A stretch of DNA of 64,000 nucleotides from Candidatus Niyogibacteria bacterium (GTDB taxonomy: Bacteria > Patescibacteriota > Minisyncoccia > HO2-45-28): positions 281,762 through 345,761 of the forward strand of contig CP066691.1 of NCBI GenBank assembly GCA_016432485.1, in the 5' to 3' direction. This document shows, one piece after another, positions 3,330-42,375 of this stretch (the stretch's first letter is position 1; each line of letters begins with the position of its first letter). The position numbers and the translations under genes are program-made. The notes under the pieces are model-generated. The model was not told the DNA's origin, did no database searches, and saw nothing but the letters and a program-made list of their open reading frames with translations.

Positions 3330-4474
3330 CCATTCATTATAGCTTGATTAATCTTTCCCAAAAACCTCTGGCCGTTCATGAGAACCGCGCCTATGACGCG
3401 ATTATCTTTCATAAAAATTTTTATATGCTCTTTTTTTTCTTTATCAAAGCGGATTTCTTCGGTTTTTACGCCGAACTTTTCGTCAAAGGGGCCGACATCG
3501 CCGACAAAAGAGATATTTACGCCCAAATGGCTGATGGCGTAAACCGGAATATTTTTAAACGATTCTTTGCCGCCCGCCATATTAAGTCCCGCCGTCCTGC
3601 CCTGCATAAAAGCGCCCGACCAGTTTCCGCCAGAACGTCTTCTCCCGGAAAAACGGTCTTTATACGAGGCGACATCTCCGGCCGCCCACACATTTGGAGT
3701 CCCGGTTTCCAAATGCTCATTTACTTCCAGGCCCCCGCTTGGCGGTTTAATCGCCGCATGGGGCAGAAAGTCCAAATTTCTATCAAGACCTATACCAACG
3801 CCAACGAAGTCGGCATCTAGTTCCGCGCTGTTTTTTATCTCACGGCCAAAAATGGTCTCAATCCCGTTTTTTTGCCACAAATCCTTTAAAATTCCGAAAC
3901 CCGTTTCATCCAAAAAATCCGGCCAAAAATACTTTTCGGCGCACAATAATTTTATTTTCCATCCGTATTTTGCCAAAATCGCGATAAACTCCAAAGCCAT
4001 AAAACCTCCGCCGACGACCAGCGCCGTACCCGACGGACGCGAAGACAAAAACTCCTTAATCTTCAAAGCGTCGTCCAGCGTTTGAAGGCGAAAAATATTG
4101 CCGGGTAACAAGGTTTCAAAGTTCCATAATTTTGGCCGGCCTCCGGAGGCAATAAGAATTTTTTTAGCGCGAAATTCTTTGCCGGAAATAGTTTTAAGCG
4201 TCATAGTCTGCGAATTAAAATCGCAAACTGACTCATTCAAAAAAATATCAATGCCGTTTTTTTTATAATCGCCGGCTGTTCTCAACATCACTTTATCCAG
4301 CTCAATCTCTTTGCGGATAAATTCCGGCAAAAGAACTCTTGAATACAAAAAATGCGGCTCGCCGCAGATTAATGCGACAGAACCATTTTGGTCTTTTTGG
4401 CGTATGGTTTCTGCGGCAGTCGTTCCGGCAATTCCGCCGCCTATAATCAGATAATCAAAGACGAGTTCGGCCAT
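3299..4474 (-). CDS. FAD-dependent pyridine nucleotide-disulfide oxidoreductase (NADH oxidase/CoA-disulfide reductase-like)
   Basis: IIGGGIAGTTAAE FAD-binding Rossmann motif, a second NAD-binding GGGFMALE motif, and about 390 aa. Confidence 0.75.
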   Translation of the reverse strand: MAELVFDYLIIGGGIAGTTAAETIRQKDQNGSVALICGEPHFLYSRVLLPEFIRKEIELDKVMLRTAGDYKKNGIDIFLNESVCDFNSQTMTLKTISGKEFRAKKILIASGGRPKLWNFETLLPGNIFRLQTLDDALKIKEFLSSRPSGTALVVGGGFMALEFIAILAKYGWKIKLLCAEKYFWPDFLDETGFGILKDLWQKNGIETIFGREIKNSAELDADFVGVGIGLDRNLDFLPHAAIKPPSGGLEVNEHLETGTPNVWAAGDVASYKDRFSGRRRSGGNWSGAFMQGRTAGLNMAGGKESFKNIPVYAISHLGVNISFVGDVGPFDEKFGVKTEEIRFDKEKKEHIKIFMKDNRVIGAVLMNGQRFLGKINQAIMNGWADSKITLD

Positions 4475-9825: not shown

Positions 9826-10524
9826 TCAAAAAGTCAGCCGGCGGAATGGCTCGGCATATTTTGTCCCGCTCTTTTTACCGTTTAGGCGCGCCCGTTCTAC
9901 AACTCCTTTTTCAAGCAGACGCATATCATGAAACTGGCTCTTATGCGCCCGCAGGGCTTTTAATTTCAGTCCGATGGTTTTAGAAATGTCCATAAATTTA
10001 TTCGGATTTTCAGGATTCCAAAACCAGGCCTCGTTTATTTGATGGGGTTTAAACTTCTTGGCCAATTCCGGAAAATAATATTTTGAACCGGCCGCGGGGT
10101 AAATGGCGTCAAAAACGGCTTCAGCCGACGTCCGATGGTCGCGATGCGAGCCGTAAAAACTAATAAAAGATTTATTGGCCGGGTCCGGAGAAACAATTAT
10201 ATCCGGCCCGACCATTCTGATAACTTTGACTATTTTTTTACGCAGGGCTTTGGTATTTTCAACCTCTCCGTCAAGTTCATCCAGAAACAAAACTTTTTTA
10301 ACTCCGACTATTTTGGCCGCGTTCATCTGTTCTTTGCGGCGCGTATTTTTCATTGCTCCGGCATTCAGGCCGGCTTTGTGCGCCCCTTTTGAGCCGTCAG
10401 TTATGACGCAATAAAAAATTTCATTGCCGTTTTTGGCAAGCTCCGCGGCGCTTCCGCTAAAACCAAAATCCGCGTCGTCGGGGTGCGGAGAAAATACCAG
10501 AAATTTTCTGACTTTCTTTGCCAT
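9826..10524 (-). CDS. PIG-L/LmbE family N-acetylglucosaminyl deacetylase
   Basis: N-terminal PHPDDADFGFSGS motif and downstream HRDH signature of the LmbE-like fold. Confidence 0.75.
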   Translation of the reverse strand: MAKKVRKFLVFSPHPDDADFGFSGSAAELAKNGNEIFYCVITDGSKGAHKAGLNAGAMKNTRRKEQMNAAKIVGVKKVLFLDELDGEVENTKALRKKIVKVIRMVGPDIIVSPDPANKSFISFYGSHRDHRTSAEAVFDAIYPAAGSKYYFPELAKKFKPHQINEAWFWNPENPNKFMDISKTIGLKLKALRAHKSQFHDMRLLEKGVVERARLNGKKSGTKYAEPFRRLTF

Positions 10525-14240: not shown

Positions 14241-14609
14241 TTATGTCGAAAAGTAATTTTTTCGGCGAGACCAAAAATCCAACGCAAGAGCTAAAGCGCC
14301 TGCCAGAAGTCCTATGTCGCGAACGGTTATGGCGTTAATTCCCGAAACCAATAAAACCAGCGCCAAATGAAGAACGGCTAAAAGCGAGGCCGTGAATGTC
14401 CAAAAATTAATCAGCAGGAAAAAACCCACCGCCAAATCAAAAATACCCGCGCCAATCATCGTTTTTTCCGGAGTAGTAAAAAGAAAATTCACGGCCCACG
14501 GCTTTATAAACCCGCTCCAGGCCGCGGGATTTTGCAAAATCAAAACGCCTATCCAGACAAAAGTAATGCCCAATCCTATTCGTAAAATATGCGCCGAGGC
14601 GGTTTTCAT
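14241..14609 (-). CDS. DoxX-family membrane protein
   Basis: Four TM helices and a DoxX-like N-terminus (LRIGLGITFVWIGVLILQNPAAW). Confidence 0.65.
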   Translation of the reverse strand: MKTASAHILRIGLGITFVWIGVLILQNPAAWSGFIKPWAVNFLFTTPEKTMIGAGIFDLAVGFFLLINFWTFTASLLAVLHLALVLLVSGINAITVRDIGLLAGALALALDFWSRRKNYFST

Positions 14610-15748
14610 AATTTTCCCTCCTTTATTTTCCGGCGTATGTTCTCCACGAATTTATTAAAACAAAAAAGATTATGCATCGTCAATAAGCGTAAGGGCGTTA
14701 TCTCCCGCGCGCGCAGCAAGTGTGAAATATAATTTCGCCTGTAATTTTTGCAGACAAAACAGGAGCAATGCTCGTCAATCGGTTTTTTATCTTTCAAAAA
14801 GCGGCTTTGGCTGAGATTGACCGGTCCGGAATTCGTAAAGGCAACTCCCGTTCGCGCGTAATGCGTGGGCACGGTGCAATCAAATGTGTCTATGCCGCTT
14901 TTAATTATAAGTTCGATGTCTTCAAGTTTGCCTATACCCAATAAATGCCTTGGCTTTTTTTCATCAAGAAGCGGGAGCGTCCACGAAATTATGTCTTTGG
15001 TTGTTTTCTTGCTTACGCCCAAATCTCCTCCGATGCCGTATCCGTCAAAACCCAGCGAATTTATAAATTTCGCGCTTTCCTGTCTCAAGTCCTTAAAATC
15101 AGAGCCCTGCGTTATGCCGAATAGCGATTGTTTTTTATTTTTTTTTGATTCCAAACATATTTTCGCCCATTTGTGGGTGCGTGCCAGAGATTTTTTAATA
15201 TAGTCCTTTGACGACAGGGGGGCGGTACATTCGTCAAAAGCAAAAATAATATCGGCGCCGAGGGCCTCCTGTATTTTTATTGATTCTCTCGGACCTAAAA
15301 AAAGCGGGCGGCCGTCCACGGGCGAACGGAAATGGACGCCGTCGTCGGTAATTTTTACCGATTTCGGCTGGGAGTGTTCTGAAATCATAATTTCTTTGCC
15401 GGATTGTCCGCTTATTTTCTTTCCCACGCCCAAGTCATGTCCAAAACCCAAACTAAAAACCTGAAATCCGCCGGAATCGGTCATGAGCGCGCCGGGCCAA
15501 TTCATAAATTGATGCAAGCCGCCGGCCGATTCAATTATTTTTTCGCCGGGCTTCAAATGCAGATGAAAAGTGTTGGCAATCAAAAGCCGGCAGCCGGCGG
15601 CCGCGGCTTCTTCCGAAGTCAAAGTTTTTACAACCGCCTGCGTCGCCACCGATACAAGGGCCGGTGTCTCAACTTCGCCGCGCTCGGTATGCAAAATCCC
15701 CAGCCGCGCCCGGCTCCTTTTTGATTTTTTAAGTATTTCAAAACGCAT
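14606..15748 (-). CDS. tgt: queuine tRNA-ribosyltransferase (tRNA-guanine transglycosylase)
   Basis: Tgt catalytic motifs (MTDSGGFQVFSL, LGIGKLED) and C-terminal Zn site CSCFVC...H. Confidence 0.9.
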   Translation of the reverse strand: MRFEILKKSKRSRARLGILHTERGEVETPALVSVATQAVVKTLTSEEAAAAGCRLLIANTFHLHLKPGEKIIESAGGLHQFMNWPGALMTDSGGFQVFSLGFGHDLGVGKKISGQSGKEIMISEHSQPKSVKITDDGVHFRSPVDGRPLFLGPRESIKIQEALGADIIFAFDECTAPLSSKDYIKKSLARTHKWAKICLESKKNKKQSLFGITQGSDFKDLRQESAKFINSLGFDGYGIGGDLGVSKKTTKDIISWTLPLLDEKKPRHLLGIGKLEDIELIIKSGIDTFDCTVPTHYARTGVAFTNSGPVNLSQSRFLKDKKPIDEHCSCFVCKNYRRNYISHLLRAREITPLRLLTMHNLFCFNKFVENIRRKIKEGKL

Positions 15749-15860: not shown

Positions 15861-15888
15861 TTTAAACTACGATATATCGTAGTTGAAA
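15861..15888. promoter_or_regulatory. 28-bp palindrome (one mismatched pair), copy 1 of the YerC-associated operator; sits in the tgt promoter region
   Basis: tttaaactacgatatatcgtagttgaaa with a perfect 20-bp core at 15865-15884. A near-identical copy lies at 16404-16431. Confidence 0.6.
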
Positions 15889-15909: not shown

Positions 15910-16326
15910 TTATTCTTTATTCATCATGTCATAAAACCATTTCCATCGGCCGCGTCCTCTCGGCGGAAGACCGGCGCTCAGTAAAATTTCCAAATCGTCA
16001 ATAAATCCTCTTTTTTTCTTGGCATCAACAATAATTGCCTTTATGTTGTCAAAATCCCCGCCCCTCATCCCCTTCCACAAACGGCCTACGGTAGAAGGAC
16101 TGACCTTCAGCGTTTTTTCCACTACCGTAAAAGGGTATTTGTTAAAAAGCATCAGGATAACAGCTAAGCGTTTGGCCAGCATTATCCGTTCCGTGGACGA
16201 CAAAAGGTCACCAAAGAAAAGCCGGCCAAAATTCTTATCTTTTAAGCTGGCCATAACGGCGTAAAAACGATCATTCATTTTTAAAAATGCTTTCTTTTTT
16301 AATTTTCTCTTCGAAATATGCGGCAT
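15910..16326 (-). CDS. TrpR-like YerC/YecD-family DNA-binding protein
   Basis: LLSSTERIMLAKRLAVILML...VVEKTLKVSPSTVGRL matches the YerC/YecD TrpR-like HTH pattern. Confidence 0.6.
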   Translation of the reverse strand: MPHISKRKLKKKAFLKMNDRFYAVMASLKDKNFGRLFFGDLLSSTERIMLAKRLAVILMLFNKYPFTVVEKTLKVSPSTVGRLWKGMRGGDFDNIKAIIVDAKKKRGFIDDLEILLSAGLPPRGRGRWKWFYDMMNKE

Positions 16327-16403: not shown

Positions 16404-16431
16404 TTTCAACTACGATATATCGTAGTTGAAA
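16404..16431. promoter_or_regulatory. perfect 28-bp palindrome, copy 2 of the YerC-associated operator, in the yerC promoter region
   Basis: tttcaactacgatatatcgtagttgaaa; perfect inverted repeat checked base by base. Confidence 0.6.
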
Positions 16432-21360: not shown

Positions 21361-21549
21361 CTAATTTCTAGTCACGACCTTTTTAATTCTTTTTGAAATC
21401 ATAATTACCAAAGCAATAATTATAATTGCGATAATTGGCCCCCACCAATCCGCTTCGGCCAGATTCGTTATTTCCTCTTCCCCTTCATGGGCAAATATTT
21501 TAACCAAAGGCAGAAGCAACAATATGCTTATTGAAAAAAGTTTCTTCAT
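21361..21549 (-). CDS. small membrane protein
   Basis: Signal peptide plus TM; HEGEEE motif; 4-nt overlap with the upstream gene. Confidence 0.35.
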   Translation of the reverse strand: MKKLFSISILLLLPLVKIFAHEGEEEITNLAEADWWGPIIAIIIIALVIMISKRIKKVVTRN

Positions 21550-22520
21550 AAATTTTGATTAGCGGCGTCGGTTTTACGCAAGTGAACCGCGTCCCACAAA
21601 ATAATCGCGCCAATAATGCCCGCGAATACAACCCACGGGACAATTCCGCCAATTCCCTGCGGAAGATTCAGAGACGATTCAATAATCGCCGATTCCGCTA
21701 TTTTTGGAAACGCAACCTCCAAAAATCTGTTCCATCCCTGATGGATAATTGAATCCTCAAACCAGGCCATTCCAAAAAATCCATAATTAAATATAAACGC
21801 GCCTAACGCCACCAGGGCCCATGCGACCCATCGTTTTACTTTTTCCTGATAAAAACTTAATTTGTTCATTGCGTTAATTCCCAATACCGCAAGCACAACA
21901 AGGAATAAAAGCGGCACAATTCTTCCAAGTCCGTGAAGCGCGCCCAACGACGCGCCGACCGTCGGAATACCGAGAGTCGCGACATAACCAAAGAGAATAT
22001 AGAAAGCGGGATTCGGACATCCCACGCCGGCATTGCCGAGAAAGAATCCCAAAAAGAAACTGCGGATATAATCATTTTTGCCCTGTAAAGATCGCGGGAG
22101 AATTGTTTGTTTGAAAGGCAGTTTGAATTTAATCAGATTAAGTTCGGAAACGCCGAATACCAGCGCCGCGATTCCGCCCAAAAGCAACATCCATGTTATA
22201 ACTTTATACAAAGCGACAAAACCCCCGAGCCAGCCAAGAGCCATTCCGTAAAGAGTAAAAGTAAGGGTTAATCCCAAACCGAAAAGAAAGGCCATAGTAA
22301 GTCCTTTGCCGATTTTACGCGAAAGCGCTAACGGCACGATGATAAATACCAGCGGAAAGGTGCATGGCAAAAAAATCATTGAGATGCCGGCAAGAAAAGC
22401 AAGAGAATATCCCGGAATAAATTCCGGCGATGTCCATAAGCTAAAGAGTCCCACCAAAATTATTGAAAGCAGAATAAAAGCCGCGGCTGTTAGCCAGATT
22501 TTAATTATATTTACACCCAT
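21546..22520 (-). CDS. DsbD/CcdA-family thiol-disulfide transporter-like membrane protein
   Basis: Polytopic; two conserved Cys in TM segments (FLPCTFP and GVGCPNPAF), resembling the CcdA/DsbD transmembrane domain. Confidence 0.5.
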   Translation of the reverse strand: MGVNIIKIWLTAAAFILLSIILVGLFSLWTSPEFIPGYSLAFLAGISMIFLPCTFPLVFIIVPLALSRKIGKGLTMAFLFGLGLTLTFTLYGMALGWLGGFVALYKVITWMLLLGGIAALVFGVSELNLIKFKLPFKQTILPRSLQGKNDYIRSFFLGFFLGNAGVGCPNPAFYILFGYVATLGIPTVGASLGALHGLGRIVPLLFLVVLAVLGINAMNKLSFYQEKVKRWVAWALVALGAFIFNYGFFGMAWFEDSIIHQGWNRFLEVAFPKIAESAIIESSLNLPQGIGGIVPWVVFAGIIGAIILWDAVHLRKTDAANQNL

Positions 22521-22552
22521 AAATTTATCTTATTGTCCCTACTTATATTATA

Positions 22553-23347
22553 TCAGATGGCGCAACCGCCGGATTGCGGCTGGGAATCTACGGCGCAAGG
22601 AGAACCGGCATCCTGATTTAATTCGGGAAACCACATTGCGTTAACCTTTGCGGCAAAATCGTACATTTCTTTTTCACCCACTCCTTGTGAGGCCATCAAT
22701 TCCAAAAGCCCGAGCATGGCCATACCGTGATTGCAGTCGGGGAAATAGGTTGAATTACTGCAGCAAGGCCGATAAACATTTTTGCTGACGCGTTCAACTA
22801 ATTCCTGCTGTTCCTCGTTCAAAATCACGAATGGGTGCCTGGCATAATGCTCCATTGCGTGTCCTTTTGCCAGCGTCCACCCTCCGGTTGATGCGAATCG
22901 GGAAGCCTTGATCAAGACCTCTTCGGCCGAAGCGGGACTTTTGCCGTCATAAGTCGTCATCGGGCCATAAATTAAAATATCGTTTCTGTTGCCAAGACCC
23001 AAAGCCCATAAAAGATTTAGGATAACGCCCGAGTTTTCAGGAGTAATTTTAAGATCGCCGTTATTTTCGCCGTAAAGAAGCTGGCGCGTTTTTTCATCCA
23101 AACCGCCGCGACCCGCGTAAAGCGATTCAAATTTTTCGGCGTCAATCACGCCCACGCTTATCATTTTTACACCTAAATCGCCCCATTTAACCGGCAAGAC
23201 CGTTCCTTCCGAGAACCCTGGCGCAACCGCGGCAAGATTTTTATTTTTTTCAGCAGCCGGTTTTTGAGTATAAATCCATGCGCCTCCAAGAATAAGCGCT
23301 GAAACTACTATGGCAACCGGCAAATTAAAACTGTTTTTTATGTCCAT
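22553..23347 (-). CDS. membrane-anchored extracytoplasmic Cys-containing hypothetical protein
   Basis: N-terminal TM; CC and C..C motifs near the C-terminus; sits within the redox gene cluster. Confidence 0.4.
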   Translation of the reverse strand: MDIKNSFNLPVAIVVSALILGGAWIYTQKPAAEKNKNLAAVAPGFSEGTVLPVKWGDLGVKMISVGVIDAEKFESLYAGRGGLDEKTRQLLYGENNGDLKITPENSGVILNLLWALGLGNRNDILIYGPMTTYDGKSPASAEEVLIKASRFASTGGWTLAKGHAMEHYARHPFVILNEEQQELVERVSKNVYRPCCSNSTYFPDCNHGMAMLGLLELMASQGVGEKEMYDFAAKVNAMWFPELNQDAGSPCAVDSQPQSGGCAI

Positions 23348-23356
23348 AAATTATTT

Positions 23357-23722
23357 TTATTTTTTATTCTCTAATAAGCACCCGCTTGCCTCTGATAATT
23401 TTTCAAGACCCGTCTCACCTTCAAATCTGCGGCCGTCGGAAAGAATCCATGTCGGATAGCCGTTAATTTTTTCAGCTAAGCATTTGTCCGTTTCTTCGGT
23501 ACACTCCACATAATTCACGAGGCGAAATGAACCGGCGAAGGCCTTTTTCTCGTTTTGGCAATGCGGACACCAGTAGGCGCCGTACATAACGACGCCTCTA
23601 TCCGTAAGGCATTGCGCGAAATCGTCATATTTTCCCTCAACCGATTCTTTCGGCCAAAAAATAAATACAAATACTGCTGCTAAAATTACGGCTAATAAAA
23701 TAATCCAAATAATTTTTTTCAT
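23357..23722 (-). CDS. membrane-anchored thioredoxin-like protein
   Basis: N-terminal TM plus WCPHC active site. Confidence 0.7.
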   Translation of the reverse strand: MKKIIWIILLAVILAAVFVFIFWPKESVEGKYDDFAQCLTDRGVVMYGAYWCPHCQNEKKAFAGSFRLVNYVECTEETDKCLAEKINGYPTWILSDGRRFEGETGLEKLSEASGCLLENKK

Positions 23723-23746
23723 ACTATAGTTCGACTACGCTCACTA

Positions 23747-24304
23747 TTAACAGCAATTTTTTAACTCGTCTTCCAATTTTTCGGCTTTGGCCGAATGTTT
23801 TTTGAGATTCTCGCTTCCGCTATTTTTTCTGACAAAAAAGACGTAAACGAGCATCGTGAAAAAAACAATTTCAATGACAAATGTCGGCCAGCTCAAAGCG
23901 CCTATGGCGATGTGCGCCAAATAAAATCCGGCGACGATAACGGCAAACCTGAACCAGAAAGATTTTTCGCCTCGCCAGTTGAATTTTTTTTCCGCCTGAT
24001 ACGCAATGCCCGCAACCGTCCCGCCCATCAGAAGCGTTATTACCGGCAAATATAAATCTACCGGCGCAAAGTCGGCCAAAACCGCGAGCGTCATCAAAAT
24101 CCACGCCCCCGAAACGCCGGCGCAAAGAGCGCAAACAGAAAAAGGCAAAAATTTATTCGCGACCTTGACGCCCAAAGTTATTGCCACAAATAAAATCAAA
24201 GCAATGATTATATCCATAATTAAAGAAGAAATATTAAAGCGCCCAAAACGACCATGGCTATTCCGCCCCAAAGCCGCATATTTTTTCGTTCTTCGGCCTG
24301 CCAA
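23747..24304 (-). CDS. polytopic membrane protein with a CxxC motif, possible disulfide-bond-formation (DsbB/VKOR-like) function
   Basis: Four to five TM helices; CALC in the first TM region; C-terminal CC; adjacent to a thioredoxin-like gene. Assignment is tentative. Confidence 0.35.
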   Translation of the reverse strand: MAGRRTKKYAALGRNSHGRFGRFNISSLIMDIIIALILFVAITLGVKVANKFLPFSVCALCAGVSGAWILMTLAVLADFAPVDLYLPVITLLMGGTVAGIAYQAEKKFNWRGEKSFWFRFAVIVAGFYLAHIAIGALSWPTFVIEIVFFTMLVYVFFVRKNSGSENLKKHSAKAEKLEDELKNCC

Positions 24305-25002
24305 GCCCGAACTTTTTTAAGCAATTTCTCCTCGCTCGCGATTAAAAGAATTATCGCGAGCGGCAAAACAAATATCAGATTGTACATCAGAAGATACCCA
24401 AAACCTCTCAAATAAGTCGCGCTGTCGTGCAAAAGCCCCAAAACCATGAGATACGGACCGCCGGTGCAGGGAAACTCGCAAAGCCCGACTAAGACCCCCA
24501 AGAAAAACGCCGTCGGCATAGAGGCCTTCTCCATAAGTTGCGCCATTTTGTGATGAGCCGCGTGCGGAACTCGAAGTTTTATGGGAAATGTCGGGAAAAA
24601 TTCATTGATGACGTTAATCGCGCCAAAGGCAATGAGAAGCGACGCTCCAACTTTAGCCATAAAATGCGGGGTGTTGAATAAATGCAGGGCTTGCAAAATC
24701 CCAAGGCCGATTAAAACATAAATTACGAACACACCCAGAATGTAGAAACCGCCTATGCGCAAAATCCCCGATCGCATTTGCCCCAGACCAAAAAGAAAAG
24801 CGACGGTCAGTAAAAGAATTGAGAAAGCGCAGGGATTGATTGAATCAATCAAAGCCGCGATGCCGACCAAAGGCAGAATCCAGCGGCCGCCATCGGACCA
24901 ATTCCACAAAATTTCCGTTCCCGCGCCACCAAATCTGAAAAAAATGACCACGGCCGCAAGTAAAACCGCGAAAACAACCAAAAAAACGAATCTGGAATTC
25001 AT
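24220..25002 (-). CDS. ccdA: CcdA-like cytochrome-c-biogenesis/DsbD transmembrane-domain thiol-disulfide transporter
   Basis: Six TM helices; conserved INPCAFS and EFPCTGGP Cys motifs; about 260 aa. Confidence 0.65.
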   Translation of the reverse strand: MNSRFVFLVVFAVLLAAVVIFFRFGGAGTEILWNWSDGGRWILPLVGIAALIDSINPCAFSILLLTVAFLFGLGQMRSGILRIGGFYILGVFVIYVLIGLGILQALHLFNTPHFMAKVGASLLIAFGAINVINEFFPTFPIKLRVPHAAHHKMAQLMEKASMPTAFFLGVLVGLCEFPCTGGPYLMVLGLLHDSATYLRGFGYLLMYNLIFVLPLAIILLIASEEKLLKKVRAWQAEERKNMRLWGGIAMVVLGALIFLL

Positions 25003-25007
25003 AGTCC

Positions 25008-25496
25008 TTACGGGGTTACCGTTGCTTTAATCATAAATTCGGCAACCGGACCCGAATCATCCTCAATTATGACTTCCCTTTCAATGTAACCGATACCGGT
25101 CGGGCCGTGCGCCGCCGGATCAAATTCAACCAGAATTTCGGCTTCCTCGTTTGGTGCCAATGTTTGACCAGCTCTCGGCACAAACCCATGCCCGGGCATG
25201 CCGTAAGGCCCGTATTTCTTTCCACCTTGAATTAAAGTGGCTTCGGTACACATGCAGGAAGTGTAGATTTTTTCCATCTTAAGCGGATCGGTTCCCGAGT
25301 TGGTAATCTTGAATTTGTGATTTACCTTGCCTTTTGCCATTGAAATTGAGCCGAAATCATAGAGTTCCTCATCAAGTTTCAGAAATCCGGCCGAGGCCGA
25401 AAGCGAGGCACTTTTTTGCGGCTGTATGTATTTTAGTCCCCATAATCCCCCGACAACCAAAATTGCTACAGTTAAAGTTAAAATAATTTTTCGCAT
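25008..25496 (-). CDS. DUF1573-domain secreted protein
   Basis: Signal/TM anchor; FDFGSISMAKGKVNHKFKITNSGTDPL...SCMCT pattern typical of DUF1573. Confidence 0.6.
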   Translation of the reverse strand: MRKIILTLTVAILVVGGLWGLKYIQPQKSASLSASAGFLKLDEELYDFGSISMAKGKVNHKFKITNSGTDPLKMEKIYTSCMCTEATLIQGGKKYGPYGMPGHGFVPRAGQTLAPNEEAEILVEFDPAAHGPTGIGYIEREVIIEDDSGPVAEFMIKATVTP

Positions 25497-25584: not shown

Positions 25585-26049
25585 TCAGTTAAAAGACGGG
25601 CTGTTTTCGTGTAGCGAAAGCCAGCGTAAATATTTTTCAGGAAAACGAACCGCGGCCGCGAACCAACGGCTCAAAACCGAAAAAGAAAAATCTTTGTTAA
25701 CGTAAATATCCGCGGCCGAAGCTGTCAGATAAATAGCAACCGTAAACAAAACGGCAAGTACGGCAAAATTAAAAGCCGCGGAAAAAACGGCTAAAGAAAA
25801 ACTCTTAAAGGCGTTGGAGTAAAAAGAAACTGCCCCGCTTATGCCTGGAGGACAGGCCGAACGGTTGACCGCGGCAGCTAAACATCCGCCGCGCATTTCG
25901 GCATTATGACCCATGGCCAAAAACCCAAAAATCGCGATTGCGATGAAACCAAAAAGTATGAAATTAACCAAAAACTTGTTCACTATTGCATTATAGTCCT
26001 CGTCCAAATCAAGGTCAACAAACCCCTCAACTTCGTTCAGGGCAAACAA
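25585..26049 (-). CDS. hypothetical membrane protein
   Basis: Two to three TM helices. Confidence 0.4.
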   Translation of the reverse strand: MFALNEVEGFVDLDLDEDYNAIVNKFLVNFILFGFIAIAIFGFLAMGHNAEMRGGCLAAAVNRSACPPGISGAVSFYSNAFKSFSLAVFSAAFNFAVLAVLFTVAIYLTASAADIYVNKDFSFSVLSRWFAAAVRFPEKYLRWLSLHENSPSFN

Positions 26050-26080
26050 AAAACGCGCTGTCGGGCGCGTTGTTTCAACC

Positions 26081-26503
26081 TTAATCAGTGCCGAGATTCA
26101 CAATCATCTTACGTTCAAGGGTTTCACCGGCTATTATTTGAATCCCGCCTGTGTGTCTTAAGTTGTTAAAATTTACGTAGGGCTTGCCGTTGTATTCTAC
26201 AAAAATACTATACTCCGCCGCTTCAAGCTCTATACTAAATTCTCCGTTTTCATCCGTATCTACCACAACGACTGGCTCTTGAGATCCGAGATACAGATCG
26301 CCGGGCGGCCATCCGTCTTTTCCATATTTATAGTCAAGAATTTCTTTGCAAGACGCTTCCCATGCGCCAATACATTCTTTGCAGAAAATTGGCGGGCTGT
26401 AAATAAAAATCCTTGTTTTAAATGGCACAACTTTTCCTCTAGGCATTGGTGGCATAAAATCGCCCGTCCGTTTAAAAGCCTGGCCTTTCAGCAGCCCCCT
26501 CAT
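26081..26503 (-). CDS. hypothetical protein with a carboxypeptidase-regulatory-like beta-sandwich
   Basis: VVVDTDENGEFSIEL...IFV pattern. Confidence 0.35.
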   Translation of the reverse strand: MRGLLKGQAFKRTGDFMPPMPRGKVVPFKTRIFIYSPPIFCKECIGAWEASCKEILDYKYGKDGWPPGDLYLGSQEPVVVVDTDENGEFSIELEAAEYSIFVEYNGKPYVNFNNLRHTGGIQIIAGETLERKMIVNLGTD

Positions 26504-26631
26504 TCCTAAAACCTCCTCTCAAAAAACACCCGACCCCATCTTTGCATATTCAGTAAAAAATCGCAACCTAACCAATTTTTAATTGGCTTTTAATCAAATC
26601 AAAAACCGGCCAAACAATCACAAGTCACACA

Positions 26632-26661
26632 ATTCAGACGGCCGTCCGAATTATATGACTT
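26632..26661. repeat. 30-bp direct repeat, copy A, containing an 18-bp imperfect palindrome
   Basis: attcagacggccgtcCgaattatatgactt; matches 27253-27282 with one mismatch. The reverse complement contains TATAAT directly abutting the palindrome. Confidence 0.85.
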
Positions 26662-26682
26662 ACTATATTTGCCATATTTGTG

Positions 26683-27210
26683 TTACACAACTTCTTCTAT
26701 AAGAAACAATTTAATATATGGGATAACGCGGTAGGATCGTATAATTTCTTCAGTTTCTTTGTAAACATCGTAGGGGCACACCCACGCACTTTGCTGGAGT
26801 TTTTGATAACCCAGATTTATCAACGCCTCTCTCAATAATCCCCTCGTCCGCCTTTGCTTCTCCGGAATATCAAAAATGATCATTACCCATCTCCCGTCTT
26901 TTCGTCTTTTCTTTTGCTTTGATTTCCACCTTGCCAAAAGCACCCTTTTGGCGCCTTTGGGCGTAAGAATAATCCCCCTTGTGCCCTCAAGAGCTTTCAC
27001 CTTTATATATCCTCTTTCTCCTAAATTCTTAATAAACTGACTGAATTTGGTTCTGGCTTTCAATATTTGATACTCGCGTCTCAAGCGATGCTCTTCGGGG
27101 TAAACAACTTGATGCATCGTGTGCGGTGCTAAGACATCATATGCTTTATCCATTTTCTCAATAAATAGATAGAGTTTCCATAAAAACGCATCGGTAATTG
27201 GTAATTTCAC
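26683..27210 (-). CDS. winged-helix plus Cas2-like-fold (PaaX_C-like) putative transcriptional regulator
   Basis: C-terminal WVMIIFDIPEKQRRTRGLLREALINLGYQKLQQSAWVC matches the Cas2 core pattern (YDI..KRR.K...L..YG.R.Q.SVFEC). The N-terminal half is wHTH-like. Bracketed by 30-bp direct repeats. Confidence 0.5.
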   Translation of the reverse strand: MKLPITDAFLWKLYLFIEKMDKAYDVLAPHTMHQVVYPEEHRLRREYQILKARTKFSQFIKNLGERGYIKVKALEGTRGIILTPKGAKRVLLARWKSKQKKRRKDGRWVMIIFDIPEKQRRTRGLLREALINLGYQKLQQSAWVCPYDVYKETEEIIRSYRVIPYIKLFLIEEVV

Positions 27211-27252
27211 GATGTTTTAATTATACATCAATTTAAAACACAAGGTAATATG

Positions 27253-27282
27253 ATTCAGACGGCCGTCTGAATTATATGACTT
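27253..27282. repeat. 30-bp direct repeat, copy B, with a perfect 20-bp palindrome ATTCAGACGGCCGTCTGAAT
   Basis: Directly seen; lies in the promoter region of 26683-27210. Confidence 0.85.
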
Positions 27283-27287
27283 GGGTT

Positions 27288-28430
27288 TTATTTATCTTCA
27301 AAATATTTTCTGCCTTTAAGCTTATCGGGCATCAAATCCTCGCTGGTGTATTTCTCATAACCTTTGCCGTAGTTTAAATTCTTCATCAATTTTGTGGACG
27401 CGTTTCGGATTTTAAGCGGAATCGGGAGGTTACCGTGATCTTTTGCGTCTTTCATCGCCGACATCAATCCGTCGTAAGCCCTGCGGTCTTTTTTGCACTG
27501 CGCCAAATACGCGACTCCATGAGCCAGATTTATCGCGCATTCGGGAAGTCCTATTGTTTCAACCGCGCGAAAGACCTCGTTAGCGACAACAAGCGCTGTC
27601 GGCTGGGCTAAACCAATATCTTCGGATGCAAAAATAACCATTCTGCGAGCGATAAATTTCGGGTCTTCGCCCGCGTCCACCATTCGCGCCAAATAATATA
27701 AAGCCGCATCCGGCTGGCTCGCGCGCATGCTTTTTATAAACGCGCTGATGGTATTATAATGTTCCTCGCCTTTTTTATCGTATCGTAAATGTTTTGATTG
27801 CAACGCGGATTTCAAATTTTCTAAATTAACTTTGCCATACAAATTATCCGTTGTTTCAAGCAAATTAAGAGCTTGGCGGGCGTCGCCGTTGGCCATGGCA
27901 ATAAGCCAATTTTGCGCGTCTTTTGGCATATTCATTTTAGTTCTGCGTATAATCCGCGTCATTTCGGCATTGTTTAATTCATTCATTACAAAAACACGGC
28001 AACGGGATAAAAGCGCGGGGATGACTTCAAAACTGGGATTTTCAGTGGTTGCGCCGATTAAAGTTAAACGCCCCGACTCAACAAAAGGCAATAAAAAATC
28101 CTGCTGGGCTTTATTGAAACGATGAATCTCGTCTAAAAATAAAATTTTACTTTTCTCGCCCAACTTGCCCTGATTGGTTCCAAGAATTTCTTTTATGTCT
28201 TCTTTTCCGGCCGAAACCGCCGAAAGTTCGTGAAGTTCGGCGTCAAGATTTCTTGCGTAAATCCGCGCGAGTGTTGTTTTGCCCACCCCCGGCGGGCCCC
28301 AAAAAATAAATGAAAAAAGGTGTCGTTTGCGAACGGCCTCATAAATCGGCTTTCCCTTGCCAGCCAAATGCCCCTGCCCCACGAATTCCCTTAAATTTTT
28401 TGGCCTGATTTTTGCCGCTAGCGGTTCCAT
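27288..28430 (-). CDS. rarA: recombination factor RarA/MgsA (AAA+ ATPase)
   Basis: Walker [12 protein letters not shown] and the RarA C-terminal helical domain. Confidence 0.85.
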
Positions 28431-29387: not shown

Positions 29388-30089
29388 TTATTTTATTCTT
29401 ATTTTTTTCTCGTTTCGTCCGGCGTAATAATCGCACTTTTTGCACTCCAAATCGTCTCCCGGGTAAGGTTTTTCAAGAAAATCAACCATTTCTTTGAGTT
29501 TCTTTTCAAAATTTTTGGCGTCAATTTTCACTTCGTCCACATGACTCGCGAATTTCACTTCTGTTGACGGGTCGTTTTTGTCTTTGACGAAATAGTGCAG
29601 CAAAAAGGCGCGGTCTGACGGCTTATATCCGTTTTTCAAAAACATATAGCCATAGGCGGCAAGTTGGTCGCGGTAATATTTCTGCTTGTCTTCAGCCGGC
29701 GCGTTGCCGGATGATTTGTAATCGGCCGGAATAAAGCGGCCGTCCGATTCCACAAAAACATCGTCAATTTTTCCGACAAGTTCGTAACCCGAATTTTCAT
29801 TTACCACTTTAAGCGCGCTGGAATTGGTCCGCCACTCGTTGAGAAGTTCCAGATCGTCAAAAGTCCTTATGCCCATTTTCTCAAGCTCCTTGGATTCCGG
29901 CGGAAATTTTTTGTCGGCGCGGTATTTGTCGTATCTGGTCTTTAAAATGCTGTCCATCGCCGTATTTAAAGCCAACGGCAGCATCGGCGGTTTTCTATGA
30001 TGATTCTCAAGCCAAAAACAGGCCTTGCATTCCGTATAAGAATAAAGCCCGCTCGGGCTCAACTTCCATAATCCATTTTTTGTTTTCAT
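29388..30089 (-). CDS. PD-(D/E)xK nuclease, Cas4/RecB-like, with four Cys
   Basis: IDD...ADYK nuclease motif. N-terminal CKAC and C-terminal CKKC pairs, consistent with Cas4-type Fe-S ligation. Confidence 0.55.
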   Translation of the reverse strand: MKTKNGLWKLSPSGLYSYTECKACFWLENHHRKPPMLPLALNTAMDSILKTRYDKYRADKKFPPESKELEKMGIRTFDDLELLNEWRTNSSALKVVNENSGYELVGKIDDVFVESDGRFIPADYKSSGNAPAEDKQKYYRDQLAAYGYMFLKNGYKPSDRAFLLHYFVKDKNDPSTEVKFASHVDEVKIDAKNFEKKLKEMVDFLEKPYPGDDLECKKCDYYAGRNEKKIRIK

Positions 30090-40311: not shown

Positions 40312-41136
40312 ATGAACGAATTTGAATATATTAAACAGCATCTGCTCAATAGATTAGAAATTGATCGCGGATACTCTCATGGTGGGGCCCAGCGTATTTT
40401 AAGAGAACAACTAAATGAATGGGAAAAAAGAAAAAATGGCATTAAAGATTTATATGGCTTGTATAGACAATTTCTTATAAGCGCGCAAAATCGGCAGGGC
40501 ATGCCTAACATTATAGGGGGAGAAAAAGGGGTTGATGAAATTTTAGAAAAAGTCATTAAGACACGACGACTTGATAAAATTGTGGAAAACTTTAAATCAC
40601 CGGAAATTCTCTTTGAGAAAATTAAAAAGGTGAGTATAACAAAAAAACATACACTGAAAAGCTCTAAAAATACATGGATTGGTTTTTGTAAATCTGTTAT
40701 ATCCAGCGCGGAGTTTTTAAAGCAGTTTAAAGATTTAAACGATTTTAGAAAGTTTGCGGATTCTTTGTATAAAGTGAGGGGAGCGCGTATGGCTCTGCCT
40801 CTTATCATAAGTGCGGAAGTTAGCGGGATTGGGTTGGCATTGGCTTGTGATATTTTAAAAGAAAGCGGATACCCAGATTATGTTAAACCCGATATTTGGA
40901 TTAAGCGCTTTGCAAAAGCTTTTGAAATTACAAAGTCAAACAGCGACTACAGAATAGCGGAGGATCTCGTGGCTTATAGTAAATCTATTAACGAACTGCC
41001 GTATGTGGTTGATAAGGCGTTCTGGTTAACTGGTAGCGGAGATTTTTATCTTAGTGGAGATAAAATCGAAAGAGTTAAAAAAGAAGATATAGAAAGTTTT
41101 GTTGAAAAATATAAAAAAGAGAAATTAACCCCATGA
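40312..41136 (+). CDS. hypothetical protein with an HhH-GPD-like motif (possible DNA glycosylase fold)
   Basis: LPLIISAEVSGIGLALACDIL followed by VKPDIWIKRF resembles the EndoIII LPGVG...VDTHIFRV arrangement. Confidence 0.35.
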   Translation: MNEFEYIKQHLLNRLEIDRGYSHGGAQRILREQLNEWEKRKNGIKDLYGLYRQFLISAQNRQGMPNIIGGEKGVDEILEKVIKTRRLDKIVENFKSPEILFEKIKKVSITKKHTLKSSKNTWIGFCKSVISSAEFLKQFKDLNDFRKFADSLYKVRGARMALPLIISAEVSGIGLALACDILKESGYPDYVKPDIWIKRFAKAFEITKSNSDYRIAEDLVAYSKSINELPYVVDKAFWLTGSGDFYLSGDKIERVKKEDIESFVEKYKKEKLTP

Positions 41137-41474
41137 CCTCAATTTTAATTTCCATAATTATTTTTCTTGCCGTGGCAGTTTTGGTGCTGGCTGTTTTTGC
41201 GCGTAAAGAAGCGGAAAAACACGGCACGAATACGAAAGATGAATTTGTCGGTATCTGCGCCTCGGCAATTGAGACGGCTTCGGAAAAAGAATCTCGCAAG
41301 CAAAAGGCGCTGGCTATGTTTGAGCGGAAAAAAGAACTCTCCAACGCCGAAATCCGCAAGACGCTCGGCGTATCTAGCCGCACGGCCGTGCGCTATTTAG
41401 ATGAATTGGAAGCGGAGGGCAAAATAGAGCAAGTCGGCAAAATCGGCCACGCCGTCACCTACCGTCTAAAATAA
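41133..41474 (+). CDS. membrane-anchored winged-HTH DNA-binding protein
   Basis: N-terminal TM plus C-terminal LSNAEIRKTLGVSSRTAVRYLDELEAEGKI HTH. Confidence 0.55.
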   Translation: MTSILISIIIFLAVAVLVLAVFARKEAEKHGTNTKDEFVGICASAIETASEKESRKQKALAMFERKKELSNAEIRKTLGVSSRTAVRYLDELEAEGKIEQVGKIGHAVTYRLK

Positions 41475-41475
41475 A

Positions 41476-41513
41476 ACAACATTCCAACATTCTGCAGAAT
41501 GTTGGAATGTTGT
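41476..41513. promoter_or_regulatory. perfect 38-bp palindrome, ArsR operator candidate, copy 1
   Basis: aacaacattccaacattctgcagaatgttggaatgttgtt, checked base by base. Located immediately upstream of the arsR-like gene. Confidence 0.6.
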
Positions 41514-41536
41514 GGCGGATGTGTTATGTTGTAAAT

Positions 41537-41806
41537 ATGGTAAAGACTTCAAGACAACTGGAAAGATATTTTAAGGGCGCGGCCAACCATCGGCGAATTG
41601 ATATCTTGTTTACGGTTGAAAAAAATGACGGGATTACGGTTGAAGAGATTGCGGATGCTCTGGAGGCAAATTTCAAGACCATCTCCCAGCACACACGCTC
41701 GCTGGTCCATGCCGGTCTGTTGAATAAACAATACCGCGGCCGTCGGGTAGCGCACTCACTTTCTCCCTATGGCAAATTTTTCCTTAAGTTCATGAAAACA
41801 TTCTAA
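41537..41806 (+). CDS. ArsR/SmtB-family transcriptional regulator
   Basis: HRRIDILFTV...ITVEEIADALEANFKTISQHTRSLVHAGLL ArsR HTH. The track start at 41507 overlaps the palindrome, so the likely true start is the ATG at 41537 (MVKTSRQL). Confidence 0.7.
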   Translation: MVKTSRQLERYFKGAANHRRIDILFTVEKNDGITVEEIADALEANFKTISQHTRSLVHAGLLNKQYRGRRVAHSLSPYGKFFLKFMKTF

Positions 41807-41830
41807 CATTCTGCAGAATGTTAGAATGTT
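41797..41830. promoter_or_regulatory. perfect 34-bp palindrome, ArsR operator candidate, copy 2, upstream of tspO
   Basis: aaacattctaacattctgcagaatgttagaatgttt; shares its core with copy 1. Confidence 0.6.
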
Positions 41831-41865: not shown

Positions 41866-42375
41866 ATGAAAATCGGTAATATTTTAAAACTCACTATTGC
41901 GATTGCGGTGTCGGAATTGGCCGGTGTGATCGGCTCGTTTTTTACTGTTTCTTCAATTCCAAATTGGTATGCCGGGCTGGTGAAGCCGGCGCTCAATCCT
42001 CCTGCTTGGGTATTTGGACCCGCGTGGACTATGCTTTACGCGTTGATGGGCATTTCGCTTTTTTTGATCTGGAAGATCAACCCTTCCGAAGCTCGCGTCG
42101 GCGAGCGTAGGAGGGCCGTCACATTATTTTTCATCCAGCTTTTCTTAAACGCAATCTGGTCAATTATTTTCTTTGGCCTGCATGGTTCAACATGGCTCAC
42201 CATAAACAATCTCGGCTGGGCATTGGTTGATATCATTCTTCTCTGGCTCGCGATCGTCTGGACAATGGTTGTATTCTACAAAATTTCTCGCCCGGCGGCA
42301 TATCTCCTCGTGCCGTATCTTCTCTGGGTAAGTTTCGCGATGTATTTAAACTACGCGATCTGGGCATTAAATTGA
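41866..42375 (+). CDS. tspO: TspO/MBR tryptophan-rich sensory protein
   Basis: Five TM helices; conserved NPPAWVFGPAWTMLY and W-rich segments. Confidence 0.85.
   Translation: MKIGNILKLTIAIAVSELAGVIGSFFTVSSIPNWYAGLVKPALNPPAWVFGPAWTMLYALMGISLFLIWKINPSEARVGERRRAVTLFFIQLFLNAIWSIIFFGLHGSTWLTINNLGWALVDIILLWLAIVWTMVVFYKISRPAAYLLVPYLLWVSFAMYLNYAIWALN

Follow-up and report, generated by a model that had tools for sequence, protein, structure and literature searches.

A Cas2-fold, PaaX-like protein of Patescibacteria encoded between two palindromes: a putative autoregulated repressor family

A putative regulator gene bracketed by palindromic repeats

In the window (the whole 64-kb stretch of DNA that was analysed, 44% GC), an ORF of 175 aa with a GTG start (26683–27210, minus strand) was bracketed by two direct repeats of 30 nt (26632–26661 and 27253–27282). 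As the initial annotation had reported, the repeats were real (29 of 30 positions identical) and both copies read AAGTCATATAATTC[A/G]GACGGCCGTCTGAAT on the coding (minus) strand. The 18-mer core TTCAGACGGCCGTCTGAA, with up to three mismatches allowed, occurred three times in the 64-kb window (0.02 expected): two matches were the flanking copies, with 0 and 1 mismatch, and the third, at 6983 with 3 mismatches, was unrelated. With only two copies within the 64-kb window, the repeat did not behave as a generic genome-wide family.

Each repeat was the core of a 40-bp imperfect palindrome centred on ACGGCCGT. The 20-bp palindrome described earlier was present in both copies, perfect in the upstream one and with one mismatch in the downstream one, but its extent had been under-called. 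The upstream putative operator (27243–27282, including the repeat 27253–27282; dyad 27262/27263) read AAGTCATATAATTCAGACGG up to the dyad and CCGTCTGAATCATATTACCT beyond it on the coding strand. Its centre lay 53 nt 5′ of the start codon, and it was conserved in the closest relative (L081). The downstream putative operator (26622–26661, including the repeat 26632–26661; dyad 26641/26642) likewise read AAGTCATATAATTCGGACGG and CCGTCTGAATTGTGTGACTT, with its centre 41 nt past the stop codon and 138 nt ahead of the next ATG; L081 carried a perfect 38-bp version of it. The only other short-range non-coding repeats in the window were two more pairs of palindromes, one around a TrpR-like and one around an ArsR-like regulator gene; both genes were unrelated to this one and showed the same two-operator layout.

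The initial annotation had also described a TATAAT fused to the palindrome as a −10 box. Since each site was a 40-bp palindrome, this hexamer fell inside the left arm, and it was CATGAT in the upstream copy of L081; a fused −10 is thus not supported. The promoter-like element that was conserved is another TATAAT (27220–27225, minus strand), 9 nt 5′ of the GTG. This is a probable −10 of a leaderless or near-leaderless mRNA: the motif GTATAATTAAAACAyyATG was conserved in L081 and L087, and L084 had TATAGT. A weak −35-like TTACCT (27243–27248, minus strand), 17 nt before this TATAAT and within the outer part of the upstream palindrome's right arm, may complete the promoter; it was unlisted by the consensus scan because only 3 of its 6 bases matched TTGACA. 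A second case of TATAAT-N6-GTG was found at 25990–25995.

The next gene downstream (26081–26503, minus strand) encoded a 140-aa protein with a weak match to a carboxypeptidase-regulatory-like β-sandwich, and is the putative target of the downstream operator; its transcription unit was closed by a terminator-like hairpin with a T-run (26052–26071, minus strand). The downstream palindrome overlapped a single canonical −10, the non-conserved TATAAT of its left arm, and a separate conserved promoter-like sequence, TTGCGA-17-AAAGAT, lay about 100 nt beyond it. In L081 the 140-aa gene was replaced by unrelated genes, and the 140-aa protein showed no homology to its L081 counterpart.

The encoded protein is predicted to comprise the first two domains of PaaX

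The C-terminal Cas2 pattern that the initial annotation had pointed out was present in the 175-aa protein, and profile searches matched it to both PaaX and Cas2 models. Residues 103–171 (26698–26904, minus strand) matched PF20803 (PaaX_M; E 1.1e-19, 70.7 bits against a cut-off of 24). The cas2 model TIGR01573 matched above its cut-off (32.6 bits) over its first half only (model positions 2–51 of 96), and the PaaX model TIGR02277 gave 25.6 bits against a cut-off of 264.55 (model positions 62–149 of 279 only). No match to the effector domain PaaX_C was obtained, the protein stopping at residue 175 directly after the Cas2-like domain. The N-terminal half was predicted with moderate confidence only (pLDDT 55–84). 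Sequence searches of the PDB gave marginal matches only, so a fold search was needed. By these computations the protein is predicted to consist of a winged helix and, after it, a Cas2-fold domain, matching PaaX over its first two domains.

The profile aligned with the genuine Cas2 motif FFDLP...QKSV, the conserved Asp at the end of β1 being present as D114 (codon 26869–26871, minus strand) in an invariant FDIPE motif. Invariant across the family were D114 and P116 of FDIPE, R123, R127, Q139, S141 and W143. Between Q139 and S141 lies Gln140 (codon 26791–26793, minus strand), which is predicted to form the tip of the β2–β3 hairpin (LQ-Q-SAW). All homologues began with MKLPITD, which supports the choice of the GTG start. 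No other copy of the regulator was found in the 64-kb window by tblastn.

The neighbours in the window encoded RarA, Ham1, a PD-(D/E)XK nuclease, DUF1573 and DsbD-like proteins and thioredoxin, with no paa (phenylacetate catabolism) genes among them. As stated initially, there was no CRISPR-like array in the 64-kb window and no cas1 among the immediate neighbours; nor was cas1 found in the listed Pfam families of the homologues' 142 neighbours, and Cas1 was absent from the best 25 matches listed in a PADLOC scan of 57 window ORFs.

A palindrome-gene-palindrome layout across the family

The homologues, here called mini-PaaX, formed a large family of about 4,500 clusters at 50% identity, confined to Patescibacteria among the matches seen. 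PF20803 was found in 98 of 98 homologues, and the length ranged from 171 to 190 aa. Several paralogues, only about 50% identical to each other, occurred per genome, next to cell-wall and DNA-metabolism genes. In public annotation the family is often named "CRISPR-associated endonuclease Cas2", because the proteins score above the TIGR01573 cut-off. Literature searches on PaaX and Cas2, Cas2-like domains with helix-turn-helix, PaaX in CPR and operators of Patescibacteria returned nothing on the mini-PaaX family.

An upstream palindrome was detected in 51 of 79 homologous loci (65%) and a downstream one, abutting the stop codon, in 47 of 78 (60%), compared with 5 of 355 control windows (1.4%). 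Some 35–40% of loci gave no detection on a given side; the counts are lower bounds, as AT-centred palindromes were filtered out. The arms were typically 17–22 nt long around a conserved centre, CG(G/A)(C/T)CG, and the downstream dyad lay mostly at +9 to +15 nt past the stop codon (~80 homologous loci). Within a locus the two copies shared 81% identity, compared with 46% between loci, and paralogues of one genome had differing arms. Thus the layout is family-wide and the operator sequences are locus-specific. Among metagenome matches to the 18-mer, the low-GC ones were informative, being distant family members and solo sites.

Dyad-to-dyad distances (n=35) ranged from 568 to 765 bp without helical phasing (Rayleigh p>0.1), and looping of DNA between the operators therefore gains no support. 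Seventeen upstream palindromes had a rightward −10-like hexamer in their right arm, at a fixed offset of +16, and the rightward −10 score exceeded the leftward one in 29 loci, the reverse being true in 7. The next co-directional gene could start ≤50 nt past the end of the downstream palindrome (14 of 40 loci), and L029 showed TATAAT-N9-TTG. In L084 and L086, a perfect downstream palindrome was kept although the next gene (MurJ) was convergent, indicating that the downstream site is not only a promoter operator.

Residue 140 covaries with the palindrome centre

Residue 140 was Q at 27 loci with a central GC and K/R at 27 loci with a central AT. Mixed centres were seen at 10 loci (8 K/R, 1 Q and 1 other), and neither a pure Q-AT nor a K/R-GC locus was present among those tabulated. 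When proteins of at least 55% identity were compared in pairs, the centre differed in 117 of 138 pairs of differing residue class and in 10 of 180 pairs of the same class. Of 16 changes of residue class on a neighbour-joining tree, 14 shared a branch with a change of centre (2.4 expected, P 9e-13), and this was the sole residue-base pair to survive Bonferroni correction over 2,788 tests. Five distinct distant members recovered via CGGCCG-type palindromes all had Q. These results suggest that the Cas2-shaped domain reads the centre of its palindromic site.

Naive mutual information had also linked arm positions 15 and 17 to residues of the recognition helix (58, 59 and 61) and of the wing (77 and 78), and position 4 to R120; none of these pairs passed tree-aware testing with multiple-testing correction.

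Proposed function and alternatives

We consider it probable, at about 70%, that the gene encodes a local, autoregulated two-domain repressor acting at its flanking palindromes. A dimer of the protein would bind the 40-bp palindromes on both sides of its own gene, with the Cas2-like domains forming the dimer core over the dyad and residue 140, at the β2–β3 tip, reading the central two base pairs. On either side, the winged helices would extend to the outer arm, some 16 bp away from the dyad. Because the upstream site overlaps the promoter predicted for the regulator's mRNA, which is probably leaderless, binding there would make the protein repress its own gene. At the second site, directly after the stop codon, it may control transcription that enters the next gene, either by occluding a promoter or by forming a roadblock. 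The initial suggestion of a self-contained repressor cassette is backed by the comparative evidence, namely the layout, the identity of the two copies within a locus and the covariation at residue 140.

A bolder version goes further: a one-residue code on the β-hairpin tip at the dyad (Gln for GC, Lys/Arg for AT, possibly in the minor groove), in an evolutionary intermediate between Cas2 and PaaX that maybe nicks the dyad and is carried by self-contained modules, each a regulator with two operators, spread between housekeeping genes of Patescibacteria. The family could be such an intermediate since it keeps the catalytic-type Cas2 Asp that is absent from Rv0674, a PaaX-like protein of Mycobacterium tuberculosis; taken as a whole, this version is doubtful.

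The initial annotation had offered a mobile or exchangeable gene cassette as an alternative, in which the palindromes are element ends or recombination sites and the unit inserts between housekeeping genes. The several paralogues per genome do stand in many housekeeping contexts (FemAB, DegT, Mur ligase, LigA, RarA and MurJ), the 3′ palindrome keeps a fixed distance from the stop codon of the gene that it accompanies and persists beside a convergent gene, and the window and its 81%-identical relative L081 have different genes following the downstream palindrome. However, the breakpoint between these two lies about 110 nt beyond the palindrome, at the start codon, and not at the palindrome itself. 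No transposase, integrase or recombinase stood beside the cassettes among 142 neighbouring proteins, and no homologue was found in 2.9 million viral contigs. Paralogues only ~50% identical argue against recent transposition, and subfamilies retained their neighbours across distant genomes (DegT-X-FemAB, Mur ligase-X-FemAB and X-LigA, X being the regulator). The unrelated TrpR-like and ArsR-like regulators of the window, moreover, share the layout. Mobility is thus an unlikely explanation of the repeats.

A slightly smaller chance is given to a site-specific nuclease or toxin of Cas2 type, in which the Cas2-like domain is catalytic and nicks or cuts the palindrome centre, or RNA, and the winged helix only provides targeting. 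The covariation at residue 140 would place this domain at the dyad, and its Cas2 β1 Asp sits in the invariant FDIPE, with R123, R127, Q139, S141 and W143 invariant too and the profile aligned with the motif of genuine Cas2, whereas Rv0674, PaaX-like and full-length, carries Thr in place of this Asp. Yet the Asp could be structural, at the dimer interface or metal-binding without catalysis; no sign of cleavage products, of duplicated targets or of rearrangements was seen at the dyads, the palindromes were stably conserved at orthologous positions, and the overlap of operator and promoter accounts for the sites without cleavage.

It is very unlikely that the palindromes act independently of the protein as RNA hairpins, either intrinsic terminators or mRNA-stabilising stem-loops, although they are situated where the upstream gene and the regulator gene end and a terminator scan flagged the downstream copy (20-pair stem). 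Mismatches showed no G·U bias (in upstream sites 33 were sense G·T and 36 A·C, in downstream ones 33 and 25), T-runs were few, following 8% of the palindromes upstream and 19% of those downstream, and Rfam gave nothing above chance in 25900–27400. Terminators need not share sequence, as the two copies of a locus do, and a residue of the protein covaries with the bases at the loop centre; L084, besides, has a separate GC-rich hairpin directly after its palindrome.

That the sites are DNA uptake sequences, their core consisting of two overlapping inverted copies of the Neisseria 10-mer DUS, GCCGTCTGAA, is hardly credible: most metagenome matches to the 18-mer were indeed unrelated, high-GC, Neisseria-like DUS hairpins such as AAAAAGGTTTTCAGACGGCCGTCTGAAAACCTTTTT, but the window has 44% GC and the regulator's relatives are Patescibacteria, the exact 10-mer occurred only 4 times in 64 kb (3 of them inside the two palindromes) whereas a Neisseria-type DUS recurs as an exact 10-mer about once per kb genome-wide, and the relatives have differing arms and a centre that can be CGATCG.

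Significance and comparison with known systems

Patescibacteria have tiny genomes with few recognised regulators. On the repressor reading, thousands of their "Cas2" entries are most likely transcription factors, and counts of CRISPR components in Patescibacteria genomes are therefore inflated. The homologues look like a large, expanded regulator family in which each member has its own long operator, giving a handle on regulation in uncultured organisms. The covariation of residue 140 with the centre offers a simple, testable specificity code; it would exemplify a Cas2-fold domain reading DNA sequence, and bears on how PaaX binds an unusually long operator and on how Cas2 and PaaX are related. 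Synthetic circuits could take parts from the many protein-operator pairs, which are naturally orthogonal.

The nearest parallel in layout is within the window, where the genes of the ArsR-like and TrpR-like autoregulators are likewise preceded by one operator and followed by another, which lies at the stop codon or overlaps it, and then by the next gene; their DNA-binding folds and palindromes are unrelated, and they have no Cas2-like domain. Genuine Cas2 (TIGR01573, PF09827) shares the β1 Asp motif and the Q-x-S-V-W strand, but stands alone at ~80–110 aa, whereas the 175-aa protein here is fused to an N-terminal winged helix, is encoded between its own palindromes and would be a sequence-specific DNA binder. 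Rv0674 (PDB 3KFW), an uncharacterised PaaX-like protein of 234–247 aa, has a C-terminal domain, and Thr at the position of the Cas2 Asp.

PaaX itself (PDB 8A39, from E. coli W; family TIGR02277, COG3327) represses the paa genes and responds to phenylacetyl-CoA. At ~305–316 aa (305 for the 8A39 chain), it is longer than the ~175-aa protein, in which the C-terminal helical effector domain is missing. The E. coli PaaX operator is TGATTC-N27-GAATCA, with inverted half-sites ~33 bp apart centre to centre; PaaX is autoregulated and acts by promoter occlusion, and no structure of a PaaX-operator complex was reported as of a 2022 review (PMC9493321). This half-site geometry of about three helical turns matches the putative 40-bp operator palindrome found here. 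Unlike PaaX, the mini-PaaX family is multi-copy per genome, has no paa genes nearby and keeps the Cas2-type FDIPE, and its whole 40-bp site is palindromic, the conserved centre covarying with one Cas2-like-domain residue.

A regulator gene between two long palindromes

The 175-aa regulator (mini-PaaX) is encoded on the complementary strand, from a GTG start at 27210 to 26683, and no further copy was found in the 64-kb window. Read on this coding strand, the RarA stop codon (27288–27290) precedes an imperfect 40-bp palindrome (27282–27243, halves AAGTCATATAATTCAGACGG and CCGTCTGAATCATATTACCT). A TATAAT (27225–27220) follows 17 nt past this palindrome and 9 nt ahead of the GTG. A second palindrome (26661–26622, halves AAGTCATATAATTCGGACGG and CCGTCTGAATTGTGTGACTT) lies 3′ of the gene, and a leader of ~120 nt with a GAGAGGAGG ribosome-binding site leads from it to the next gene, a 140-aa ORF (26503–26081, same strand), just past which is a terminator-like hairpin (26071–26052). 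The 30-nt direct repeats described in the initial annotation (26632–26661 and 27253–27282) were confirmed, being identical at 29/30 positions; within 64 kb their 18-mer core matched only these two sites and one unrelated sequence with 3 mismatches, far above chance. The symmetry of each site reaches 40 bp, beyond the 20-bp palindrome first reported, and therefore the TATAAT thought to be fused to it (27271–27276) falls within the left arm. This TATAAT was not accepted as a −10 box because the upstream copy of the closest relative (L081) reads CATGAT.

The core consists of two overlapping inverted copies of GCCGTCTGAA, the Neisseria DNA-uptake 10-mer. Metagenome matches to the core were mainly high-GC Neisseria-like hairpins, and the resemblance is a sequence coincidence. 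The 10-mer itself occurred 18 times in the window with ≤1 mismatch (3.7 expected).

The C-terminal half was recognized as Cas2-like, as had been proposed, by Pfam PaaX_M (“PaaX central Cas2-like domain”, E 1e-19, residues 103–171) and by NCBIfam TIGR01573 (cas2, 32.6 bits vs a cut-off of 24.5); Pfam CRISPR_Cas2 gave 23.7 bits (cut-off 23.8), and the PaaX equivalog TIGR02277 merely 25.6 of 264.55 bits. In an AlphaFold2 model built on an alignment of 33 homologues (mean pLDDT 78, Cas2-like half 84–89), helices are followed by a β-hairpin wing and a βαββαβ domain. The protein has no PaaX effector domain, since it terminates directly after its Cas2-like part. The genuine Cas2 motif FFDLP...QKSV aligns with its β1 motif FDIPE, in which D114 is invariant, and with the strand LQxSxW.

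A PD-(D/E)XK nuclease gene (29388–30089, 233 aa) located 2.2 kb upstream of the regulator has a C-terminal Cys cluster and a weak sub-threshold Cas4 (DUF83) match; no other CRISPR component was seen, so this proximity is probably a coincidence. Among the matches listed in a PADLOC search of all window ORFs were a DrmD-like protein (DISARM SNF2 helicase, E 2e-184), BrxH-like, MzaA-like and RT_UG29-like proteins and several DNA methyltransferases, which may represent a defence island or housekeeping homologues. Downstream of the cassette, on the same strand, envelope and redox genes follow one another (21546–25496). They encode a DUF1573 protein (25008–25496), two DsbD/CcdA-like membrane proteins (24220–25002 and 21546–22520), a thioredoxin-like protein (23357–23722) and small Cys-rich membrane proteins, and may form a cluster for thiol-disulfide chemistry or metal handling.

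The same layout across the family

All 98 close homologues (171–190 aa) contained PF20803, and several carried the NCBI or JGI name “CRISPR-associated endonuclease Cas2”. Among 1.84 billion cluster representatives, a search with the family profile retrieved 4,480 clusters at E≤1e-10, and 320 matches were obtained in a set of one genome per GTDB species. All 80 loci listed among the latter came from Patescibacteria-type MAGs (Paceibacterota, Wildermuthbacteria, Staskawiczbacteria and others), a few bearing other labels in their record titles, with up to three paralogues per MAG. No homologue was found in the viral contigs searched.

Even palindromes whose centre is G+C-rich were sought in 79 loci, with windows elsewhere in the same loci as controls. 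An upstream palindrome (≤260 nt before the start) was detected in 51/79 loci and a downstream one, between −20 and +200 nt relative to the stop, in 47/78; the control windows gave 5/355. Of the 79 loci, 35 had both. Arms were mostly 17–22 nt and at most 28 nt long, so that perfect palindromes reached 56 bp, with a T-tract 8–10 positions from the dyad and TA-rich outer ends. The centres were CGATCG at 45 sites, CGGCCG at 34, the hybrids CGACCG or CGGTCG at 10 and AAGCTT at 4. Over 40 nt, the two copies of one locus were 81% identical and copies from different loci 46% (95th percentile 65%); arms differed even between paralogues of one MAG. The downstream dyad lay chiefly +9, +14 or +15 nt past the stop codon, so that the left arm abuts or overlaps it. 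Upstream dyads spanned −17 to −224 and clustered at −27 to −34; in most of this cluster a TATAAT or TATAGT located 6–13 nt before the start forms the end of the right arm. Distant members shared the layout: at L100, for instance, a gene for a 155-aa protein with FDIPE...IQQSLW was found between two ATTCAGACGGCCGTCTGAAT palindromes.

Intergenic regions that lack a nearby family member also contained palindromes of the same class, one of them (in L205) directly upstream of an ORF; some regulators therefore probably own more than two sites. At two loci (L187, ~4082–4123, and L192, ~10202–10243), two divergent genes are separated by ATTATATCATAGTTCAGACGGCCGTCTGAACTATGATATAAT, a palindrome of 42 bp that is perfect and carries TATAAT at either end. 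No family member is encoded within 900 nt, and the site resembles a solo operator serving a pair of divergent promoters.

Genomic context

The palindromes had alternatively been proposed to delimit a mobile or exchangeable gene cassette. In L081 (81% nucleotide identity), synteny with the window extends from RarA through the regulator, downstream palindrome and leader as far as the ribosome-binding site and returns at 25982; in between, two unrelated genes of 205 aa and 84 aa (L081 1108–2329) take the place of the 140-aa gene (26081–26503). The position of this gene looks like a small variable slot. The breakpoint does not coincide with the palindrome. Neighbours of the 80 loci were ordinary housekeeping genes: FemAB (10 loci) and NAD-dependent DNA ligase (4) downstream, DegT-type aminotransferases (11) and Mur ligases (7) upstream, and also TatD, DprA, ComEC, KsgA and topoisomerase. 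No recombinase was among them. Subfamily contexts (DegT-X-FemAB, Mur ligase-X-FemAB and X-LigA) were kept across distant genomes, which speaks for stable local regulators.

Two unrelated regulators of the window share the layout. A TrpR-like gene (15910–16326, complementary strand), whose 138-aa product matches Pfam Trp_repressor at E 5e-8, has a 28-bp palindrome, TTTCAACTACGATATATCGTAGTTGAAA, on either side (16404–16431 and 15861–15888), each copy followed by a similar promoter-like stretch, and the next gene is tgt (14606–15748). An ArsR-like gene (41507–41806, forward strand), immediately downstream of an HTH_11-type gene (41133–41474), is flanked by 34–38-bp palindromes AACATTCyAACATTCTGCAGAATGTTrGAATGTT (41476–41513 and 41797–41830), has its stop codon inside the left arm of the second, and is followed by TspO/MBR (41866–42375). 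These and the mini-PaaX pair were the only short-range non-coding repeats in 64 kb. It follows that this compact genome uses “operator, regulator, operator, next gene” as a general regulatory arrangement. On these grounds a mobile cassette appears quite improbable, and the family-wide layout and stable contexts favour the self-contained repressor arrangement suggested at the outset.

The palindromes were also considered as RNA hairpins, and this reading was rejected: G·U-compatible mismatches were not preferred in imperfect palindromes (33 vs 36 for the upstream set and 33 vs 25 for the downstream set), a T-run followed just 8% of upstream and 19% of downstream palindromes, and an Rfam search of 25900–27400 returned nothing above chance.

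Residue 140 and the palindrome centre

Residue 140 (Gln140 in the window protein; LQ-x-SxW) lies at a hairpin tip between predicted strands 136–139 and 142–145 of the AlphaFold2 model. Q140 occurred with a central GC at 27 loci, AAGCTT sites included, and K/R140 with a central AT at 27; 10 loci had mixed centres (8 K/R, 1 Q, 1 other), and no pure Q-AT or K/R-GC combination was present among the scored loci. Among protein pairs ≥55% identical, the centre differed in 117/138 when the residue class differed and in 10/180 when it was the same. On a neighbour-joining tree built with the residue-140 column left out, 14/16 residue-class changes fell on the same branch as a centre change (2.4 expected, P 9e-13). 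A tree-aware all-against-all scan of 2,788 residue–base pairs gave this as the sole pair passing Bonferroni correction (p 2e-6 on raw residues). Five of five distinct distant proteins, found independently via CGGCCG-type palindromes, carried Q. The L087 protein is 91% identical to that of another locus, L084, yet has K140 instead of Q140; its upstream site (of the pair 844–881 / 1429–1464) is perfect and GCGATCGC-centred, and its downstream site is still ACGGCCGT-centred, with two arm mismatches. L087 may represent a change of operator specificity that is still under way. Naive associations of helix or wing residues with arm positions 15 and 17 failed the tree-aware test.

This covariation suggests that the palindromes are probably protein-binding sites partly read by the Cas2-like domain, and the comparative signal would place this domain on the operator dyad. 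Reading in the minor groove at the dyad would be compatible with Lys/Arg at an AT step and Gln at a GC step. The minor groove would face the protein at 0 and again near ±10, where the conserved T-tract lies, and the major groove near ±16, the proposed winged-helix contact. We put the probability that the protein is a DNA-binding regulator recognising its flanking palindromes at roughly 0.7.

Promoters and the role of the two sites

A rightward −10-like hexamer was found at a fixed offset of +16 to +21 from the upstream dyad in 17 loci, and at upstream sites the −10 score was higher rightward than leftward in 29 loci and the reverse in 7. This puts the operator across the promoter of the regulator, as autorepression would predict; in the window the palindrome would cover the −35 region (TTACCT, 27248–27243), and a regulator bound there would repress its own gene. 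The conserved GTATAATTAAAACAyyATG/GTG (window, L081 and L087; TATAGT in L084) implies a leaderless or near-leaderless regulator mRNA. TATAAT stands 6–9 nt before a GTG start both in 27211–27225 (this same TATAAT of the regulator) and in 25983–25995 (a membrane-protein gene), a spacing suggestive of leaderless mRNAs in this organism; the second case, TATAAT-N6-GTG at 25995–25983, shows such a promoter type in use, and the membrane-protein gene probably starts at GTG ~25983, not TTG 26049. Other genes, e.g. that at 26503, have a strong GAGAGGAGG ribosome-binding site.

A downstream site acting as an operator on the neighbour's promoter would fit 14/40 loci, in which the next co-directional gene could start ≤50 nt past the palindrome; TATAAT-N9-TTG is seen at L029. 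Three observations call for caution. Downstream palindromes showed no rightward −10 asymmetry. The window's downstream dyad is 138 nt away from the next ATG, with a separate, conserved promoter-like TTGCGA-17-AAAGAT between them. L084 and L086 each have a perfect downstream palindrome that overlaps the stop codon, even though MurJ, the gene that follows, is convergent. The second site may thus serve the regulator gene too, as a roadblock, insulation element or auxiliary operator; no helical phasing of operator spacing was seen. Repression of the specific downstream gene stands at about even odds.

Comparison with known families

No paper on the mini-PaaX family was found in the literature. Mini-PaaX shares the fold, motif and TIGR01573 score of Cas2, but has no cas1 or CRISPR array nearby, as initially noted, is fused to a DNA-binding domain and is double the size; the public “Cas2” names of the family are misannotations. 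With PaaX it has the first two domains in common, and resembles it in autoregulation (here inferred) and in a long operator of two half-sites. The E. coli PaaX operator, TGATTC-N27-GAATCA, agrees in overall geometry with the mini-PaaX palindromes; no structure of a complex was available as of a 2022 review (PMC9493321). Unlike PaaX proper, mini-PaaX lacks PaaX_C, scores far under the equivalog cut-off and is without paa context, and the PaaX-like Rv0674 has Thr in place of the Asp of FDIPE. Mini-PaaX is thus a minimal, effector-less PaaX-type regulator, greatly expanded in Patescibacteria.
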